From assembly GCF_054482525.1 (NCBI RefSeq), contig NZ_CM137006.1: a stretch of DNA of 64,000 nucleotides. One strand, given 5' to 3'. Below the pieces are notes generated by a model. It saw only the letters and a program-made list of their open reading frames with translations. It did no database searches and was not told where the DNA came from. This document shows, piece by piece, positions 28,481 to 43,708 of the stretch. How positions within the stretch are numbered: the stretch's first letter is position 1; every line of letters begins with the position of its first letter. The translations under genes and the position numbers were made by a program.

Positions 28481-29442
28481 TGCGTAGCGCGCAGGTATAC
28501 CGCTGGCAGATCCCCATGGACGCGGGGGTGGTTCTGCGCGACAGGCGGTTAAAAACCCGCGACGGGCTGTATGTTTGCCTGCGTGAGGGCGAGCGCGAAG
28601 GGTGGGGGGAGATCTCCCCACTACCGGGCTTCAGCCAGGAAACCTGGGAAGAGGCGCAAAGCGTGCTGCTTGCCTGGGTAAATAACTGGCTGACAGGCGA
28701 TTGCGAGCTACCGCAGATGCCTTCCGTCGCCTTTGGCGTAAGCTGTGCATTGGCGGAGCTGGCAGACACGCTCCCGCAGGCAGCCAATTATCGTGCTGCG
28801 CCGCTGTGTAATGGCGATCCTGACGATCTGATCCTCAAACTTGCCGATATGCCTGGCGAGAAAGTGGCGAAGGTCAAAGTGGGATTGTACGAAGCCGTGC
28901 GCGACGGCATGGTGGTCAATCTGTTGCTGGAGGCAATTCCGGATCTGCATTTGCGTCTTGACGCGAACCGCGCCTGGACGCCGCTGAAAGGCCAGCAGTT
29001 TGCCAAATACGTTAACCCGGATTATCGCGACCGCATCGCGTTTCTCGAAGAGCCGTGCAAAACCCGCGATGATTCGCGAGCGTTTGCCCGTGAAACCGGG
29101 ATTGCCATTGCCTGGGATGAAAGCCTGCGTGAGCCGGATTTTGCCTTTGTGGCGGAAGAAGGTGTGCGCGCGGTAGTTATCAAACCCACGCTCACGGGCT
29201 GCCTGGATAAAGTACGCGAGCAGGTGCAGGCGGCGCACGCGTTGGGGCTGACGGCGGTGATCAGTTCATCTATTGAGTCGAGCTTAGGCTTAACGCAACT
29301 GGCGCGGATTGCCGCCTGGTTAACACCAGAGACTATTCCAGGGCTGGACACGCTGGATCTGATGCAGGCGCAGCAGGTTCGTCGCTGGCCGGGTAGCCCG
29401 CTACCGTTAGTGGAAGTTGATGCACTGGAGCGGCTGTTATGA
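28480..29442 (+). CDS. menC: o-succinylbenzoate synthase MenC (enolase superfamily)
   Basis: 320 aa; overlaps the menB stop by 1 nt. Confidence 0.93.
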
Positions 29443-30794
29443 TCTTCTCTGACTGGCCGTGGCGTCACTGGCGGCAAGTGCGGGGAGAAGCCATCGCCTT
29501 ACGTCTTAATGACGAGCAACTTAACTGGCGCGAGCTTTGTGCTCGCGTCGATGAATTAGCCTCCGGCTTTGCGGCGCAGGGCGTTGTTGAGGGCAGCGGC
29601 GTGATGTTGCGGGCGTGGAATTCGCCGCAAACGCTGCTGGCCTGGCTGGCGTTACTGCAATGCGGGGCGCGGGTGCTGCCCGTGAATCCACAGCTGCCGC
29701 AACCGTTACTTGAGGAATTGCTCCCCAATCTGACGCTGCAATTTGCGCTGGTGCCGGATGGGGAAAACACGTTTCCGGCGTTAACGTCGCTGCACATTCA
29801 GCTGGTTGAAGGCGCACATGCCGCTGCGTGGCAGCCGACGCGTCTGTGCTCAATGACGTTGACCTCCGGCTCTACCGGTTTGCCGAAAGCCGCTGTTCAT
29901 ACTTATCAGGCCCATCTTGCCAGTGCGCAAGGTGTGTTATCGCTGATACCGTTTGGCGAGCACGATGACTGGTTGCTCTCTTTACCGCTGTTTCACGTCT
30001 CCGGCCAGGGAATTATGTGGCGCTGGTTATACGCTGGCGCGCGGATGACGGTACGTGATAAACAGCCATTGGAGCAAATGCTGGCAGGCTGTACTCACGC
30101 TTCACTGGTGCCAACACAACTCTGGCGTTTGCTGGTTAACCGCAGTTCCGTTTCCCTGAAAGCGGTGTTACTTGGCGGTGCGGCTATCCCGGTCGAGTTG
30201 ACGGAACAGGCGCGCGAGCAGGGGATTCGTTGCTTTTGCGGCTATGGTCTGACCGAGTTTGCCTCCACGGTGTGTGCGAAAGAAGCCGACGGCCTGGCGG
30301 ACGTCGGTTCGCCGCTGCCGGGGCGGGAAGTGAAAATCGTTAATGATGAAGTGTGGCTGCGGGCTGCCAGTATGGCAGAAGGTTACTGGCGTAACGGGCA
30401 ACTGGTTCCACTGATTAATGACGAAGGCTGGTACGCCACGCGCGATCGCGGTGAGATGCATAATGGCAAGCTGACCATTGTCGGACGTTTAGATAATCTG
30501 TTCTTCAGTGGCGGTGAGGGTATTCAGCCGGAAGAAGTCGAGCGTGTTATTGCTGCACATCCTGCAGTTTTGCAGGTGTTTATCGTTCCCGTTGCCGACA
30601 AGGAGTTTGGTCATCGGCCGGTAGCGGTGGTGGAGTATGACCAGCAAACCGTTGATCTTGACGAATGGGTGAAAGATAAGCTGGCTCGTTTTCAACAACC
30701 GGTGCGCTGGCTAACTCTGCCGCCGGAGCTGAAAAACGGCGGTATTAAAATTTCACGTCAGGCGCTAAAAGAGTGGGTGCAACGCCAGCAATAA
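29439..30794 (+). CDS. menE: o-succinylbenzoate-CoA ligase MenE
   Basis: 451 aa with adenylate-forming motif (TSGSTGLPK). Confidence 0.93.
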
Positions 30795-30903
30795 TTAATC
30801 CTCCGTTTCACTTCTCATTTCTGCCATTCCATTGCCGTTGATAAAGAGTTTATCTGTTAATCTGTAAATTGATGTGAAAACTCTTAGCAAACAGGATAAT
30901 GCA

Positions 30904-31170
30904 ATGGAATGGCTGGTCAAAAAATCGTGCTGCAATAAACAAGATAACAGACATGTACTTATGCTCTGCGATGCTGGTGGCACGATAAAAATGATCGCCG
31001 AAGTGAAGAGTGACTTCGCCGTGAAAGTGGGGGATTTACTCTCGCCTTTGCAGAATGCGCTTTATTGTATTAATCGTGAAAAGCTGCATACGGTGAAAGT
31101 CCTCTCGGCAAGCAGTTATAGCCCCGATGAGTGGGAACGGCAGTGTAAAGTGGCAGGGAAAACTCAGTAA
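30904..31170 (+). CDS. pmrD: Signal transduction connector protein PmrD
   Basis: ATG at 30904 gives [26 protein letters not shown] (88 aa); the ORF track's 98-aa ORF starts 30 nt upstream. Confidence 0.88.
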
Positions 31171-31550
31171 CGTTGTTTTGTCGTGGGCAGGAAAATCAGC
31201 ATCAACCCGCTCATAATACAGGCTACTCCCAGTAGTGCTTTCAGCGAAAAAGTCCCTTCCCAGCCGGGAAGTACCATTGAAGCAATCCATACCAGCACAT
31301 AACTCATACTGAGCAAGGCATAGGCTTTGCTTAGTGCAAGTTTATGTAGTGTTTTATACCAACAAAAAACGGAAAGCAGATAACCCAGCAGCCCGAGTAA
31401 CAGTATCCGGGCATCCAGGCCAAAAGCTAACAGCGCCGCGATAAAATCCCATAAGTGCGTCATCGGCGGCAGATGACTCGCCGCAAAACCCAGGCTTAAT
31501 TGCGCAGCGGAGGCGATAATGACGCTGAATAATCCCCACATCAGGCCCAT
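31164..31550 (-). CDS. arnF: Undecaprenyl-phosphate-aminoarabinose flippase subunit ArnF
   Basis: 128-aa 4-TM protein from the ATG at 31548..31550 ([17 protein letters not shown]); the 222-aa track ORF is an upstream extension. Confidence 0.88.
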
Positions 31551-31885
31551 TACACGGTACTCCCGAGGATCACAATGCCACCAATAATGAACGCCACCCC
31601 ACACCAGTGACGCGGCGATACCGGTTCGTGCCACAGTTTTACTGCAGCCAGCGTCACCCAGACAAAATTCAGACTTAACATCGGGTAGGCAATGCCTACC
31701 GGTACGTTCTGCAAGACCAGCAGCCAGAGCACCATGGCAGGACCAAGACAAGCCAGCGCCAGTCCCAGCCACAGCACGATATGTTTGCGCCGTTTGTTTA
31801 TCGCCACAAAGCAGGTTGCCTGTTTCTGACACAACTGCCCGGCAACGCTAAGCAAGCTGGCAAAGACTAATGTTAGCCAGATCAT
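31550..31885 (-). CDS. arnE: Undecaprenyl-phosphate-aminoarabinose flippase subunit ArnE
   Basis: 111-aa small-multidrug-resistance-like membrane protein; 1-nt overlap with arnF, 4-nt overlap with arnT. Confidence 0.88.
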
Positions 31886-33537
31886 TTGGGACGATACTGA
31901 ATCAGCACCAGACGCTCCTGACGATCGATGGTATCTGCGGGCGGAATGGCGAGACTGTTGATATCTTCATCGCGGTCAACCGAAAGCACGAGTGTAATAA
32001 TCCCCTCCTGACGATGTTGATTAAGCCAGTTTGCGAACTCATCACCGCTGACAAATCTCCCTTTCGCATCCGGATAATTAAGGCCGTATTTCAACTCACC
32101 TGTCTGGCGATACATGATGATGTCATCGCGTTGCAGGCTCCATGCCAGACCTGCGGCAACACCGACGCTATCAGTAAGAATATAGCGGCTTGGCTGCAGT
32201 GATTCTTGTGTCATCTCGACAAAAAATTGCGGATGTTTTCCTTCCATGACTCTGTCAGGAATTGAAAATCCTACCAGCAACGCCAGCCCCAGCGGGCAAA
32301 GCGCGGCAAAAGACCAGGTCTTTTCGACGTTTGTTAAGGTGTACCAGCCGAAAAATGCCCATAGCGAAAAAATCGACCAGGCACAGAAGACTTTATAGCT
32401 CTCGAAGGTTTGCCACACCGGCGTGTTCATTGGTCCCCAGGGGGAGACCACAAACGTAGCAATAATGCCAGTGACGCCAAAAGCGATGTTAATCCAGCCA
32501 TTAATCCGCAACGCCAGAGGATTATTTTTTGCTGCCAGCAAAGCGTAATGCGCCATCAGCATTGCCAGAGGTGCAAAGCAGGAAAGAATATAGGTGGGCA
32601 ATTTGCCTTTGGCGACGGAGAAAAACAGCAGCGGCATTACCGCCCAGCTCAACAAATAGACGGTTGCGGAATGCTTGCGGTTTTTCCAGCCTGCGTACAG
32701 TGCTCCGGGGAGTAATCCCAGCCACGGCAGGCTACCGGCAATGATGACCGGCAAGTAGTACCAGAACGAAGCTCTATGCTGAGCATCATCCATTGCAAAG
32801 CGTTGAATATGCTCAACCCAGAAAAAATAGTGCCAGAAGTCAGGCTCCCGCTGCGCTATCGCCAGTCCCCAGGGGAGAACCGTCAGTACGCAACTGATAA
32901 CCGCCAGCCAGCCGTAAATAAAGAGATCTTTCCAGCGTTTTTGCGTTGCAACCCATGGAAGCACGCTTAATACCGGCACGGCAAGGGCGAGAAAACCTTT
33001 GGTCATCACCCCCATGCCGCAAGTGATTCCCAGCAGTAAAAATCCCGCGCTTTTGCCTTTCCACGTCTGTGCCTGCATTGCCAGCCAGAAGCTGCACATT
33101 CCCGCCACCAGCCAGAAGGCAATAAACGGATCGAGCACGGCATAAGTGCCGATGGCATAGACAATGAACAATGAGAGGTAAATCACTGCGGCGAGTAATG
33201 CCAGACGTTTATCGCGCCATAAGCGCAGAGTAAACCAGGTCACCAGCGCGGCAGTTAACAGGGTCGCAAAGATAACGCCTGCCCGCACACCAAAGTTATT
33301 CGCGCCAAATAACCATTGCCCAATGCTGTTAATCCAGTATCCGGCAATGGGTTTTTCAAAATAACGTAGCCCTAACAGATGGGGCACAATCCAGTCGCCG
33401 GATGCCAGCATTTCCCGACTGATTTCCGCATAACGCGTTTCATCGGGTTGCCAGAGCAGACGCGTGCTGATCGGTAACAGGTAATAGCAGGCAATAAACG
33501 CGAAGAGGCCGATAAGGTAACGTACCGATTTCATCAA
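31882..33537 (-). CDS. arnT: Lipid A 4-amino-4-deoxy-L-arabinose transferase ArnT
   Basis: 551 aa (550 from the second Met), polytopic glycosyltransferase; operon order. Confidence 0.93.
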
Positions 33538-34424
33538 CGACTACCCACAATTTGTTGGCAACCCAGCCAGCCTTCACGTCCGGCAATATTTCCGCGAACA
33601 ACTTGCCCGAGCGGCAACGTCCCTGATAACAGTTCGCTTAAAGGGCAAAATGTCACGCCTTCCTGGGCTGCCCGTTTCAGGAGATCCACAAAATTATGCT
33701 GATAAGCGCAGCCTTCAACTTCTGCATGAATGGTATAAACCGGCGTGCCTTTATCTCGCAGGATGCGGTTGAGTAACCAACCGTTAAAATCTTCTGCTTT
33801 CACATCCCGACCAATCACTTCATCCCAGGTGGGTAAGGTCACCGGAATTTGCGCAGTACCGGGTTTTCCTGATTCGAGCAATGGACGAAACGGCATCGCT
33901 CCACGACAATCGCTGTTGTAGCGCAAATGGAACGCTTCTTTTGCTTCGATCACCTGCTGGTCGGCACGCCAGCCAGCGGCTGCGGAGCAAGTTACCGGTT
34001 GGCCGATAATTTCTTCCAGGGTGCGAAGGCCGCGTGCGATATCGTCGACCATTGTTTGCCGATCCCAGTTACCGCTATGGGCTTGCCAGGCATGGTGATC
34101 CCAGGCGTGCAGGCCGACTTCGTGGTGTTTAGCCGCTTCACGAATGATATCGGCATTGGCATGACCAATCTCTTTACCTGGCCAGGCCGTACCTGCCAGT
34201 AAAATATCCCAGCCATAAAGCGATGCCGCGTTTGAGCGCAGCATCTTCCACAAAAACTGTGGCTTCACCAGTCGCCAGAGATGGCGGCCCATATTGTCCG
34301 GGCCGACGCTGAAAAAAATGCTGGCCTGAATATTATGCTTACTCAAGATTTCCAGCAGACGCGGCACGCCTTCACGGGTGCCACGAAAGGTATCGACATC
34401 AATGCGTAAGCCTACTTTGGTCAT
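33534..34424 (-). CDS. arnD: 4-deoxy-4-formamido-L-arabinose-phosphoundecaprenol deformylase ArnD
   Basis: 296 aa, polysaccharide-deacetylase-like. Confidence 0.93.
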
Positions 34425-36402
34425 GATGGTTTATCCGTAAGATCAACGGTGCGCAGGAAGAAATCCAGCGTTTCGTCGATGGTTTCCTGCATATCAATTT
34501 TTGGTTCCCAGTCCAGGCAGCGGCGGGCATTGCGGATGCTCGGTTTACGATGCTCTACATCCTGATATCCTTTGCCGTAGTAGCTGCTACTTTCGACAAC
34601 ACGAAAGCCCGCAAACGGTGGGAAGTGATGGCGCAGCGGATGTTTTTCGAAGCTCGCCAGCAGCATCTCGCCCAGTTCCTCAATGCTCGCTTCGTTATCA
34701 GGATTGCCAATGTTGATAATTTCGCCGTCGCAGCGATTTCCCGCATTTTCGATAATGCGGTATAACGCCTCGATACCATCGCGAATATCAGTAAAGCAGC
34801 GTTTTTGTTTTCCGCCATCAATTAGCTTAATTGGTGAACCTTCTACCAGATTGAGAATGAGTTGCGTAATAGCGCGGGAGCTGCCGATTCGTGCTGCATT
34901 AAGGTTATCCAGTCGTGGTCCCATCCAGTTAAACGGCCGGAAGAGGGTGAACTGTAAACCCTCTTTTTCGCCATAGGCCCAGATCACCCGATCAAGTAAT
35001 TGTTTTGACACCGAATAAATCCAGCGTGGTTTATTCACCGGGCCGACGATTAAATTAGAATGGTCCTCATCGAAGTATTTATCGCTACACATCCCATAAA
35101 CTTCTGAAGTTGACGGGAAGATGATTCGCTTACGGTACTTCACGCAGTAGCGGATAATGCGCAGATTCTCTTCAAAATCGAGTTCAAATACGCGCAACGG
35201 GTTGCGGGTATATTCAATCGGCGTGGCTATCGCCACCAGCGGCAAGACGACATCACATTTTTTGACGTGATACTCAATCCATTCGGAATGAATACTGATA
35301 TCGCCTTCGACAAAGTGAAAATGCGGATGATTCAGAAAACGGCTTATCGCATCGCTGCCAATATCCAGACCGTAAACTTCATAATGATCTTCGCGCAGCA
35401 GGCGTTCTGTCAGATGGTTGCCAATAAAGCCATTCACCCCGAGGATGAGTACCCGGGTACGGCGTCGGGCGGTGCAGGCAGGCTGGCTATTCAAGCGTGA
35501 ACCTTGCACCAGGCCCAGCGTCTGCGCTAACTGCGAGCCCTGCATAGTAATGCCGTCGCCCGCCTGTCCGGTGACGATTTCCAGCGCGCCATCGCCACAG
35601 GCAATCAGCAGTGGTGCAACAGAAATCACGCTCCCCGGCTGTGCTTTGCTGGCATGAGGATGAACACGCGACGACCAGACGGTGAATTTCTGATTGCCAA
35701 CATAGCTGAAGGCACCCGGCCACGGATCGGCAACGGCACGCACCATGTTGTGCAGTACGGATGCCGGCTTATGCCATTCGAGGAAACTGTCTTCCGGTGT
35801 TCTGCGACCAAAACAGGTGGCTTCGTTTTCGCGCTGGGCGATTTCCAGAATATTACCGTGTTTAATGGCGGGTAATGTCTGCTCCAATAGCTGGCGCGCG
35901 GCATGGCACAATTTATGATGCAGCGTAATGGCGATATCGTCTGGCGCAATGGCAACGCGCAGTTGTGCCACAATGGCCCCGGCATCGGCACGTTTCACCA
36001 TTCGGTGCAATGTAACGCCAGTTTCCGTTTCACCGTTCACCAGCACCCAGTTCAGCGGCGCGCGACCACGATATTTTGGTAACAGCGAACCATGCAGATT
36101 AAATGCACCTCTCGGAGCGAGCTGCAAAATCTCATCGCAAATAAGATGGCGATAATAAAAAGAGAAAATCACCTCTGGTGATAGTTGGGCAATGCGTTCC
36201 ACCCACAGCGGATGATTAACGTTATCCGGCGCATAAACTGGAATGCCTCTTTCCGCTGCCAGTCGGGCAACCGAACCATAAAAGGCTTTTTCACCGGGGT
36301 TATCAGTATGGGTAAAAATGGCGCTAATTTCGTAACCGGCAGACAGCAGGGCTTCAATACCGAGGCATCCCATATCGTGGTAGGCAAAAACGACGGTTTT
36401 CA

Positions 36403-36403
<1 letters not shown>
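34421..36403 (-). CDS. arnA: Bifunctional UDP-glucuronate decarboxylase / UDP-Ara4N formyltransferase ArnA
   Basis: 660 aa; N-terminal formyltransferase ([13 protein letters not shown]) and C-terminal short-chain dehydrogenase domain ([14 protein letters not shown]). Confidence 0.95.
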
Positions 36404-37374
<971 letters not shown>

Positions 37375-38514
37375 TTATTGTCCTGCGAGTTGCTGAAGGG
37401 CTGTGATGACGCGGTCGGCATCGGCGGTGGTCATATCCGGGAACAGCGGCAACGAACAGATGCGTTCGCTATTCCATTCGGTATTCGGTAACGACAGCGT
37501 GGGAAAACGCTCGCGATAATATTTTTGTGTGTGAGCGGCGCGGAAATGTAACCCGGTACCAATGCCTCTTTCTTTTAACGCTTCCATCAACGCATCGCGA
37601 CTGATACCACAACGTTGTTCATCGACACGAATAATAAACAGATGCCAGGCGTGAACGTGCGGCCAGGCGGGAAGGCTTAATGGCTGAAAGGGGAGAGCTG
37701 CCAGTGCTTGCTGATATTGCTGGGCAATTTCGCGCCGACGGGTGTTGAGGTGCTCTAATTTGGCTAACTGGGTCAGGGCAATCGCGGCGTTAATATCGGT
37801 CAGATTATACTTATAGCCCGGCGTTAAGACTTCAGCTTGCGGTGCACGGCCCCAGGTTTGTCTGTCATAGGCATCGACACCCAGACCGTGAAATTTTAGC
37901 ATCCGTAGCTGGCGGGCAAGGTTTTCATTATCAGTAACAATCAGGCCACCTTCCGCACAGGTAATATTTTTGATGGCGTGAAACGAAAAAATAGCGGTAC
38001 CTTTTGCGCCAATATGTCGGCCTTTGTAATACGTACCGACGGCATGGGCAGCATCTTCGATAACTGCGATGCCGTAACGTTCGCCAATGGCGCGAATGGC
38101 GTCAATATCTGCTGGCGCACCGGCATAATGCACCGGAATGATGGCTTTAGTGCGTGGCGTAATGGCTGACTCGATCGCTTCAGGCGTGACCATCAGCGTA
38201 TCGCGGTCGACATCCACCATTACCGGCGTTGCACCCAACAAGGAGATCATATTGAGGGTTGAAACCCAGGTCAGGGAAGGCGTAATCACTTCATCGCCCT
38301 TGCCAATTTCCAACGCCATTAGCGTGATATGCATTCCGGCGGTGGCTGAACTGACCGCGATGGCATGCTGATTTCCCGTCAACTGGCAAAAGGCTTGTTC
38401 AAGCGCCTGATTCTTCGGACCGGTTGTGATCCAACCGGATTCGAGAACCTCTTTAACTGCAGCGAGTTCCTCCACGCCCATTGCTGGTCGCGAAAAAGGC
38501 AAAAATTCTGACAT
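37375..38514 (-). CDS. arnB: UDP-4-amino-4-deoxy-L-arabinose aminotransferase ArnB
   Basis: ATG at 38512..38514 gives [13 protein letters not shown] (379 aa); the track ORF extends to 38547. Confidence 0.9.
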
Positions 38515-42017: not shown

Positions 42018-42492
42018 AACCCCGTCCTTCAGGGCGGGGATATAAGGCGCGGTTTTCCACCTGACCAGGTGTTTGCTGTTGTTCAATGTATTGGCGGATG
42101 ACGGATATTGGCGCACCTCCGCAGCTACTGGCAAAATAGCCAGGACTCCACAAAACGCCTTTGTAGTAATACCTGACAGCAATATCTGGTCGATCTCGTC
42201 GCAGAAACCTATTCGATATGCCTTTGAGGCTGTTTACCAGACTGAATATCGCCAGTTTTGGAGGATAGTTAATTAACAAATGGACGTGATCTGGTTCGCC
42301 ATCCATTTCAATCAGTTCAGCTTCAAAATCAGCACATACATTTGAAAAGTAAGTGCGTAGTTTTTCTGTCGCGTCATGGTCAAAAATCTGGCGTCGGTAT
42401 TTGGTGACAAAGACCCGGTGAACATGCATCAGGAAAACACAATGCCTTCCACGCCGGATATCGGTTTCTTTTTTCACAGACCAAAGTATCAT
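41887..42492 (-). CDS. tnpA: IS605-family transposase TnpA (Y1 HUH), apparently C-terminally extended
   Basis: HCVFLMHVHRVFVTKYRRQIF ... PDHVHLLINYPPK (HuH) ... LWSPGYFASSCGG (Tyr region); the core is about 150 aa but the ORF runs to 201 aa through the left-end hairpin and antisense into the yfaY 3' end. Confidence 0.8.
   Translation of the reverse strand: MILWSVKKETDIRRGRHCVFLMHVHRVFVTKYRRQIFDHDATEKLRTYFSNVCADFEAELIEMDGEPDHVHLLINYPPKLAIFSLVNSLKGISNRFLRRDRPDIAVRYYYKGVLWSPGYFASSCGGAPISVIRQYIEQQQTPGQVENRALYPRPEGRGFTAHWIRSWTQQPQSSHAHWQCPGRLTNGAAYSVPSLRTLPDG
42020..42039 (+). repeat. Left-end subterminal hairpin of the IS605-family element
   Basis: CCCCGTCC-TTCA-GGGCGGGG (8-bp stem including one G-T wobble, 4-nt loop); 17 of 20 identical to the right-end hairpin. 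Confidence 0.65.
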
Positions 42493-42499
42493 TTGGCCT

Positions 42500-43708
42500 G
42501 TGAAACGACTACAGGCATTTAAATTCCAGTTAAGACCCGGTGGTCAACAGGAGCGTGAAATGAGGCGCTTCGCAGGCGCATGTCGTTTCGTTTTCAATCG
42601 TGCTCTGGCACGTCAGAATGAGAATCATGAGGCCGGTAATAAATACATCCCTTACGGGAAAATGGCTTCCTGGCTGGTTGAGTGGAAAAACGCCACTGAA
42701 ACGCAATGGCTTAAAGATGCCCCCTCACAGCCATTGCAACAGTCACTGAAAGACCTTGAGCGGGCTTACAAAAACTTCTTCCAGAATCGGGCTGCTTTTC
42801 CCCGATTCAAAAAGCGGGGACAGAATGATGCATTCCGCTACCCGCAGGGCGTTAAGCTCGATCAGGAAAACAGCCGTATTTTTCTGCCGAAACTTGGCTG
42901 GATGCGCTACCGGAACAGCCGTCAGGTCACGGGTGTTGTAAAAAATGTCACTGTCAGCCAGTCCTGCGGTAAGTGGTACATCAGTATTCAGACAGAAAGT
43001 GAAGTATCAACTCCGGATCACCCTTCAGCATCAATGGTCGGGCTGGATGCTGGCGTGGCTAAACTCGCCACGCTGTCAGATGGCACAGTCTTTGAGCCTG
43101 TAAACAGTTTTCAGAAAAACCAGAAGACGCTGGCGAGACTTCAGCGACAGTTAAGCCGCAAGGTCAAATTCAGCAACAACTGGCAGAAGCAGAAACGCAA
43201 AATACAGCGACTGCATTCCTGTATCGCAAATATCCGCAGGGACTACCTTCACAAAGTCACAACGACCGTCAGCAAAAACCACGCAATGATAGTCATTGAG
43301 GATTTGAAGGTCAGCAACATGTCAAAGTCAGCAGCGGGTACGGTCAGCCAGCCGGGGCGCAATGTCCGGGCAAAATCAGGTTTAAACCGTTCGATACTGG
43401 ATCAGGGCTGGTATGAAATGCGCCGCCAGCTTGAGTACAAGCAGCTCTGGCGTGGCGGTCAGGTGCTTGCTGTTCCGCCAGCGTACACAAGCCAGCGTTG
43501 CACGTGCTGTGGTCATACAGCGAAAGAAAATCGCCTGTCACAAAGTCAATTCAGATGCCAGGTATGTGGATATACAGCGAACGCCGATGTAAATGGCGCT
43601 CGTAACATTTTAGCGGCGGGGCACGCCGTTCTTGCCTGTGGAGGGATGGTGCAGTCAGGCCGCTCGTTGAAGCAGGAACCCACCGAAATGATTCAGGCGA
43701 CAGCCTGA
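42500..43708 (+). CDS. tnpB: TnpB (OrfB), RuvC-like RNA-guided nuclease of IS605 family
   Basis: 402 aa, GTG start; RuvC-I ([16 protein letters not shown]), RuvC-II ([10 protein letters not shown]), zinc finger (CTCCGH ... CQVCG), RuvC-III ([10 protein letters not shown]). Confidence 0.9.

Follow-up and report, generated by a model that had tools for sequence, protein, structure and literature searches.

The pmrD and arnF genes converge and overlap tail to tail by 7 bp within the 64,000-nt stretch of DNA analysed here (hereafter, the window). The reading that best accounts for the data, and which is considered probable, is that of a compact and already annotated junction where each transcript ends in the opposite gene, probably through Rho, and where the complementary 3′ ends arise as a by-product. 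The overlap itself is known, as it is found in the reference annotation of E. coli K-12 and of thousands of other genomes.

Geometry of the Overlap

The 7-bp overlap put forward in the first-pass annotation is confirmed by the sequence, by the open reading frames and by RefSeq in three strains (Table 1). The RefSeq CDS ends of E. coli PCN033, which is 100% identical to the window, match the overlap exactly, and the same 7 bp are annotated in O157 Sakai and in K-12 MG1655 (arnF at 2372892-2373278 on the plus strand, pmrD at 2373272-2373538 on the minus strand). On the arnF side, the overlap comprises the stop codon, Tyr128 and the third base of Arg127; on the pmrD side, it comprises the third base of Thr87, Gln88 and the stop codon. 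Each stop codon falls within the final sense codons of its neighbour. The two stop codons had been described as overlapping each other, which is contradicted by the sequence: they have no base in common and are separated by G31167.

Both frames are backed by full-length homologues, the PmrD homologues carrying PF11183 and the ArnF orthologues, of 125-128 aa, being annotated under that name. Of 5426 complete E. coli genomes, 5238 contain a 76-nt stretch spanning the junction, with pmrD and arnF both annotated over it in 10 out of the 10 records listed. The reading frames and their stops, the homologues and the RefSeq annotation of the three strains identify pmrD and arnF as tail-to-tail overlapping protein-coding genes. 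Eight convergent junctions are annotated in the window, which alone serves as the baseline for convergent CDS overlaps, and such an overlap is found only at pmrD/arnF, the remaining seven junctions showing gaps of 38-220 nt.

Co-directional overlaps are also observed within the arn operon, of 1 nt between arnE and arnF (31550) and of 4 nt between arnT and arnE (31882..31885), which is the usual pattern of translational coupling. Farther away in the window, a partial IS200/IS605 tnpA and an intact TnpB (InsQ) gene are found at about 42067..43708, adjoining an MFS transporter gene, and the pseudogenes annotated elsewhere include a frameshifted elaD and LysR-domain fragments.

Table 1. Features of the pmrD/arnF region, in window coordinates.
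Feature	Position	Strand	Description
menE CDS	29439..30794	+	Last gene of the men operon, upstream of pmrD and co-directional with it
menE-pmrD spacer	30795..30903	+	109 nt, holds the pmrD promoter region
pmrD CDS	30904..31170	+	88 aa, PhoP-activated connector protein; stop TAA 31168..31170; RefSeq WP_001366409.1
Weak hairpin	30996..31021	- (arn-sense)	dG -9.3, followed by ATCATTTTTAT; about 145 nt past the arnF stop, inside pmrD codons
CDS overlap pmrD/arnF	31164..31170		7 bp, tail to tail, TCAGTAA; sequence, ORF list and RefSeq
arnF CDS	31164..31550	-	128 aa, Ara4N-undecaprenyl-phosphate flippase subunit; last gene of the arnBCADTEF operon; stop TGA 31166..31164; RefSeq WP_000523864.1
Hairpin	31307..31336	+ (pmrD-sense)	13 bp, dG -17.5 (to -20.1); about 140 nt past the pmrD stop
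arnE CDS	31550..31885	-	Upstream operon partner of arnF; ORF list and RefSeq
arnT	31882..33534	-	Farther upstream in the arn operon

Spacing of the Junction across Species

In compact bacterial genomes, short tail-to-tail overlaps of a few bases form when one gene loses its stop codon and is extended to the next in-frame stop, located within its neighbour. Compared with generic short overlaps of this type, pmrD/arnF is distinctive only in that both genes belong to the polymyxin-resistance circuit. The variability of the junction was analysed on loci gathered by aligning PmrD homologues and scanning one genome per species, more loci being added through ArnF homologues. The comparison covers Escherichia, Salmonella, Citrobacter and Pseudescherichia, the Klebsiella and Enterobacter pmrD loci not having been recovered by the peptide-pattern scan.

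The 14 loci with both genes differ in spacing, the widest gap being of 9 nt and the longest overlap of 7 bp. The latter is shared by E. coli, E. fergusonii, E. marmotae and E. albertii, in the form TCAGTA(A/G). An overlap of 6 bp, the palindrome TCATGA with the two stops back to back, is found in S. enterica and its subsp. diarizonae. Citrobacter shows short gaps, of 2 nt in C. freundii and C. youngae, of 3 nt in C. farmeri and the amalonaticus-like loci, and of 9 nt in C. amalonaticus S646. The 7 bp are thus conserved within Escherichia, although the proteins there are only about 77-79% identical, and the overlap length is not conserved beyond this genus. The C-terminal tails of PmrD and ArnF vary both in sequence and in length between genera. 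The exact 7-bp overlap would be, as these comparisons suggest, an Escherichia-specific outcome of stop-codon drift in poorly constrained C-terminal tails.

The Pseudescherichia locus (L016:2501-4265) is informative in this respect, as it is devoid of pmrD and its arnF and menE genes converge with a gap of 7 nt. Such a tight junction implies that the lack of spacer is independent of pmrD, and the spacer-less end of the arn operon is thus ancestral. Together with the variable overlap length, this tight junction argues against the 7-bp overlap being a selected regulatory feature. This locus also marks the exact point, the arnF/menE junction, where pmrD either was inserted or has been lost cleanly.

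Several of the loci gathered show rearrangements or irregularities of their own. Almost the whole arn operon has been lost, through different deletions, in E. coli SCPM-O-B-8794 (window equivalents about 31232..38439; L005:2700-3200) and in Escherichia sp. MOD1-EC7003 (about 31423..38453; L004:2990-3110). Both retain pmrD together with the final 68 or 259 nt of arnF, fused to the first 60-75 nt or so of arnB, and this remnant adjoins ais, nudI and yfaZ. The PmrA-dependent arnB promoter would now face straight into pmrD antisense in these two strains. In SCPM-O-B-8794, the PmrD tail now ends at a different stop (...KSANNVVLQ*), in line with the stop-codon drift suggested above. In Salmonella enterica subsp. 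arizonae CCUG 6322T (L011:2750-3130), arnF is found as three tblastn pieces and its ORF stops at 114 aa, which likely reflects a frameshift or pseudogene, or an assembly error. Lastly, two pmrD/arnF loci are found in the 'Citrobacter sp.' MAG HRGM_Genome_0066, one on an E. coli-like contig (L003, 3.1 kb, 95-98% identity) and the other of genuine Citrobacter type (L009), which suggests contamination of the MAG bin.

Overlapping Transcripts and the Polymyxin-Resistance Circuit

Because the coding sequences overlap, any transcript reaching its own stop contains sequence complementary to the other mRNA. The overlap of the two transcripts at their 3′ ends, as initially proposed, is therefore well founded, and it has been published for arnF-pmrD from MG1655 RNA-seq data (PMC12288877). 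In that study, which describes ExcludonFinder (Nucleic Acids Res 2025), arnF-pmrD is one of 165 convergent excludons of MG1655, the criterion for listing being an overlap of the transcript boundaries in 50% or more of 58 RNA-seq samples. The pair is explicitly named as a same-pathway excludon and is listed without a functional test. Another convergent overlap of the polymyxin circuit, pmrR-basS, belongs to the same list (PMC12288877, Table 1), and a 25-bp pmrR/pmrB overlap has been discussed for BL21 (PMC8004244). The pmrD/arnF pair resembles the other MG1655 convergent excludons in its 3′ transcript overlap, in the convergence of same-pathway neighbours and in the possibility of transcriptional interference or RNase III processing. 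It differs from the E. coli excludons of that list, which have a mean spacer of 95 nt and overlap through their 3′ UTRs, since it has no spacer and the coding sequences themselves overlap.

The regulatory context of the two genes is well described. The pmrD gene is activated by PhoP in E. coli, Salmonella and Klebsiella, and it dates back to the common ancestor of these genera, where it was either acquired or invented (PMC3140997, PMC2565834). In Salmonella, phosphorylated PmrA represses the PhoP-promoted transcription of pmrD, according to the account of Kato, Latifi and Groisman (2003) given in PMC3140997 and PMC2565834. This repression is reported to be absent in E. coli and Klebsiella, and its absence in Klebsiella has been linked to a pmrD promoter without a PmrA-box-like sequence (PMC3140997, PMC2565834).

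Antisense interference between pmrD and arnF is plausible. A functional role of the convergent excludon would imply that PmrA-driven arn transcription, running antisense through pmrD, lowers pmrD expression through polymerase collision and/or RNase III cleavage of the duplex, and that PhoP-driven pmrD or men transcription acts likewise on the arnF/arnE end. A promoter-independent negative feedback would thereby be added to the PhoP-PmrD-PmrA circuit. This possibility is considered unlikely. The transcript overlap on which it relies is forced by the sequence and reported by RNA-seq, and the pair has been singled out for its common pathway, but an excludon call based on coverage follows almost inevitably from the CDS overlap as soon as the two genes are expressed. 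Its predicted direction, active PmrA lowering pmrD, agrees with the negative feedback known in Salmonella. The latter is nevertheless ascribed to PmrA acting as a repressor of the PhoP-promoted transcription of pmrD, that is to say to an effect of the same sign exerted at the promoter level and involving no 3′ overlap, and the Klebsiella promoter mentioned above points the same way. The spacer-less junction is found in 14 of the 14 loci with both genes, but the arnF-menE junction is equally tight where pmrD is absent. Moreover, the literature search retrieved no experiment on antisense effects or on reciprocal expression of arnF and pmrD.

Transcription Termination around the Junction

The first-pass annotation had also concluded that the overlap leaves no room for terminators. 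This holds for an intergenic terminator, which is impossible because there is no spacer between arnF and pmrD, but it overlooks the possibility of embedded or Rho-dependent termination. A consensus scan of positions 30500..32000 detected no canonical intrinsic terminator at the junction on either strand; its five matches all lie within coding regions and none is positioned to end pmrD or arnF. Global folding across the junction is no better than that of shuffled sequence on both strands (z of +0.9 and +0.6), and the Rfam 15 covariance models gave no match in 29000..34000 at E<=1. No G+C-rich stem-loop with A-tract and U-tract flanks, as expected for a bidirectional intrinsic terminator, lies between the gene ends. 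More generally, no terminator-like element was found at or adjoining the junction on either strand, and none is conserved there in the other species.

A comparison can be drawn with the convergent gene pairs separated by bidirectional intrinsic terminators in SEnd-seq work (Wang et al., bioRxiv 10.1101/2022.10.23.513370). The pmrD/arnF pair is similarly convergent, with head-on polymerases whose collision could aid termination. In contrast to the sites of that work (10.1101/2022.10.23.513370), where a defined stem-loop lies between the gene ends, the pmrD/arnF junction has none.

A more lenient search for hairpins followed by a U-tract yielded two non-canonical candidates, each about 140 nt past a stop (Table 1). 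The one on the plus strand, within the arnF codons for LSKAYALLS, could be taken as an intrinsic terminator for the pmrD and men transcripts embedded in arnF, with its U-rich tail, which would cap the antisense overlap at about 170 nt. This is very doubtful. The hairpin is the strongest in the region and is favoured on the plus strand by three G-U pairs, but its U-tract is not adjacent to the stem, from which it is separated by 12-14 nt, and is missing in several Citrobacter loci. It was also missed by the standard terminator scan. Each of the 16 sequences aligned has the potential to form a hairpin at this position. When the antisense arnF strand was aligned from these 16 loci and the pairs were counted against 500 column shuffles, pairing was kept in 84% of cells, a level matched by 72 of the 500 shuffles, and covariation was not significant. 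The variable columns correspond to third codon positions, so that the pairing would result from the conserved codons of the LSKAYALLS peptide rather than from selection on structure. The hairpin was thus rejected as a supported structure, on account of the shuffles and of this third-position variation, and it is retained only as a candidate pause or termination element. Its weaker counterpart on the minus strand is absent in E. fergusonii and E. marmotae, and is not conserved.

Upstream of pmrD, neither the consensus nor the lenient scan detected a terminator-like site on the plus strand in the menE-pmrD spacer. Read-through from the men operon into pmrD, and on into arnF antisense, is therefore possible, and it may add to the transcription entering arnF antisense.

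The base composition beyond each stop offers another indication. The C/G ratio, calculated in 78-nt windows, is 1.5-1.7 after the pmrD stop, over windows spanning +21 to +158, and 1.1-1.7 after the arnF stop, from +1 to +198, with a dip to 1.1 at +41 to +118. It is mostly 1.4-1.7 in the first 160 nt or so past each stop. Such C-over-G antisense stretches are compatible with Rho-dependent termination inside the opposite gene. Mapped 3′ ends for pmrD and arnF were not found in the Adams 2021 or SMRT-Cappable-seq supplements, and the literature search retrieved neither a paper joining pmrD with Term-seq nor bicyclomycin data for termination at pmrD/arnF.

Proposed Origin of the Overlapping 3′ Ends

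The idea that the overlap is an annotation artefact, one gene truly ending earlier, could draw on the poor conservation of both C-terminal tails between genera, but it is hardly conceivable and was rejected, since a stop position is set by the reading frame and not by the annotator, full-length homologues back both frames, and the same ends recur in PCN033, Sakai and K-12, with an identical stretch in thousands of genomes.

The preferred reading remains that of a compact junction with by-product antisense 3′ ends. The arnBCADTEF operon, activated by PmrA, abuts without a spacer the pmrD gene, which is activated by PhoP and comes after the men operon. As no terminator can lie between the genes, each transcript has to end inside the other gene, and its 3′ extension is antisense to the neighbour. 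Termination would most likely be Rho-dependent, acting on untranslated C-rich antisense RNA as the base composition suggests, and may be assisted by weak hairpins and by head-on polymerase collisions. Any mutual antisense or collision effect would then be a by-product of compaction, at most a modest modulator and not a dedicated control element. As a counterpoint, a tight junction kept in Escherichia, Salmonella and Citrobacter between genes of a single circuit would be equally consistent with selection for an antisense relationship, and the conservation of the 7 bp within Escherichia, in spite of the divergence of the proteins, also speaks against the preferred reading.

Meaning for the PhoP-PmrD-PmrA Circuit

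The overlapping-transcript reading of arnF-pmrD is already published, and the overlap matters little as it stands. A more far-reaching interpretation, regarded as quite improbable, is that the spacer-less arn/pmrD junction provides a negative feedback independent of promoters, by which PmrA-activated arn transcription through pmrD antisense would damp the connector that activates PmrA. If true, this feedback at the junction would operate in E. coli too, where promoter-level repression of pmrD by PmrA is reported to be absent. It would represent one more layer on a well-studied polymyxin-resistance circuit, that is to say a modest refinement and no new principle. Such an antisense feedback, if real, could also affect the interpretation of pmrD and arn reporter and deletion constructs, because deleting the 3′ end of one gene alters the other.
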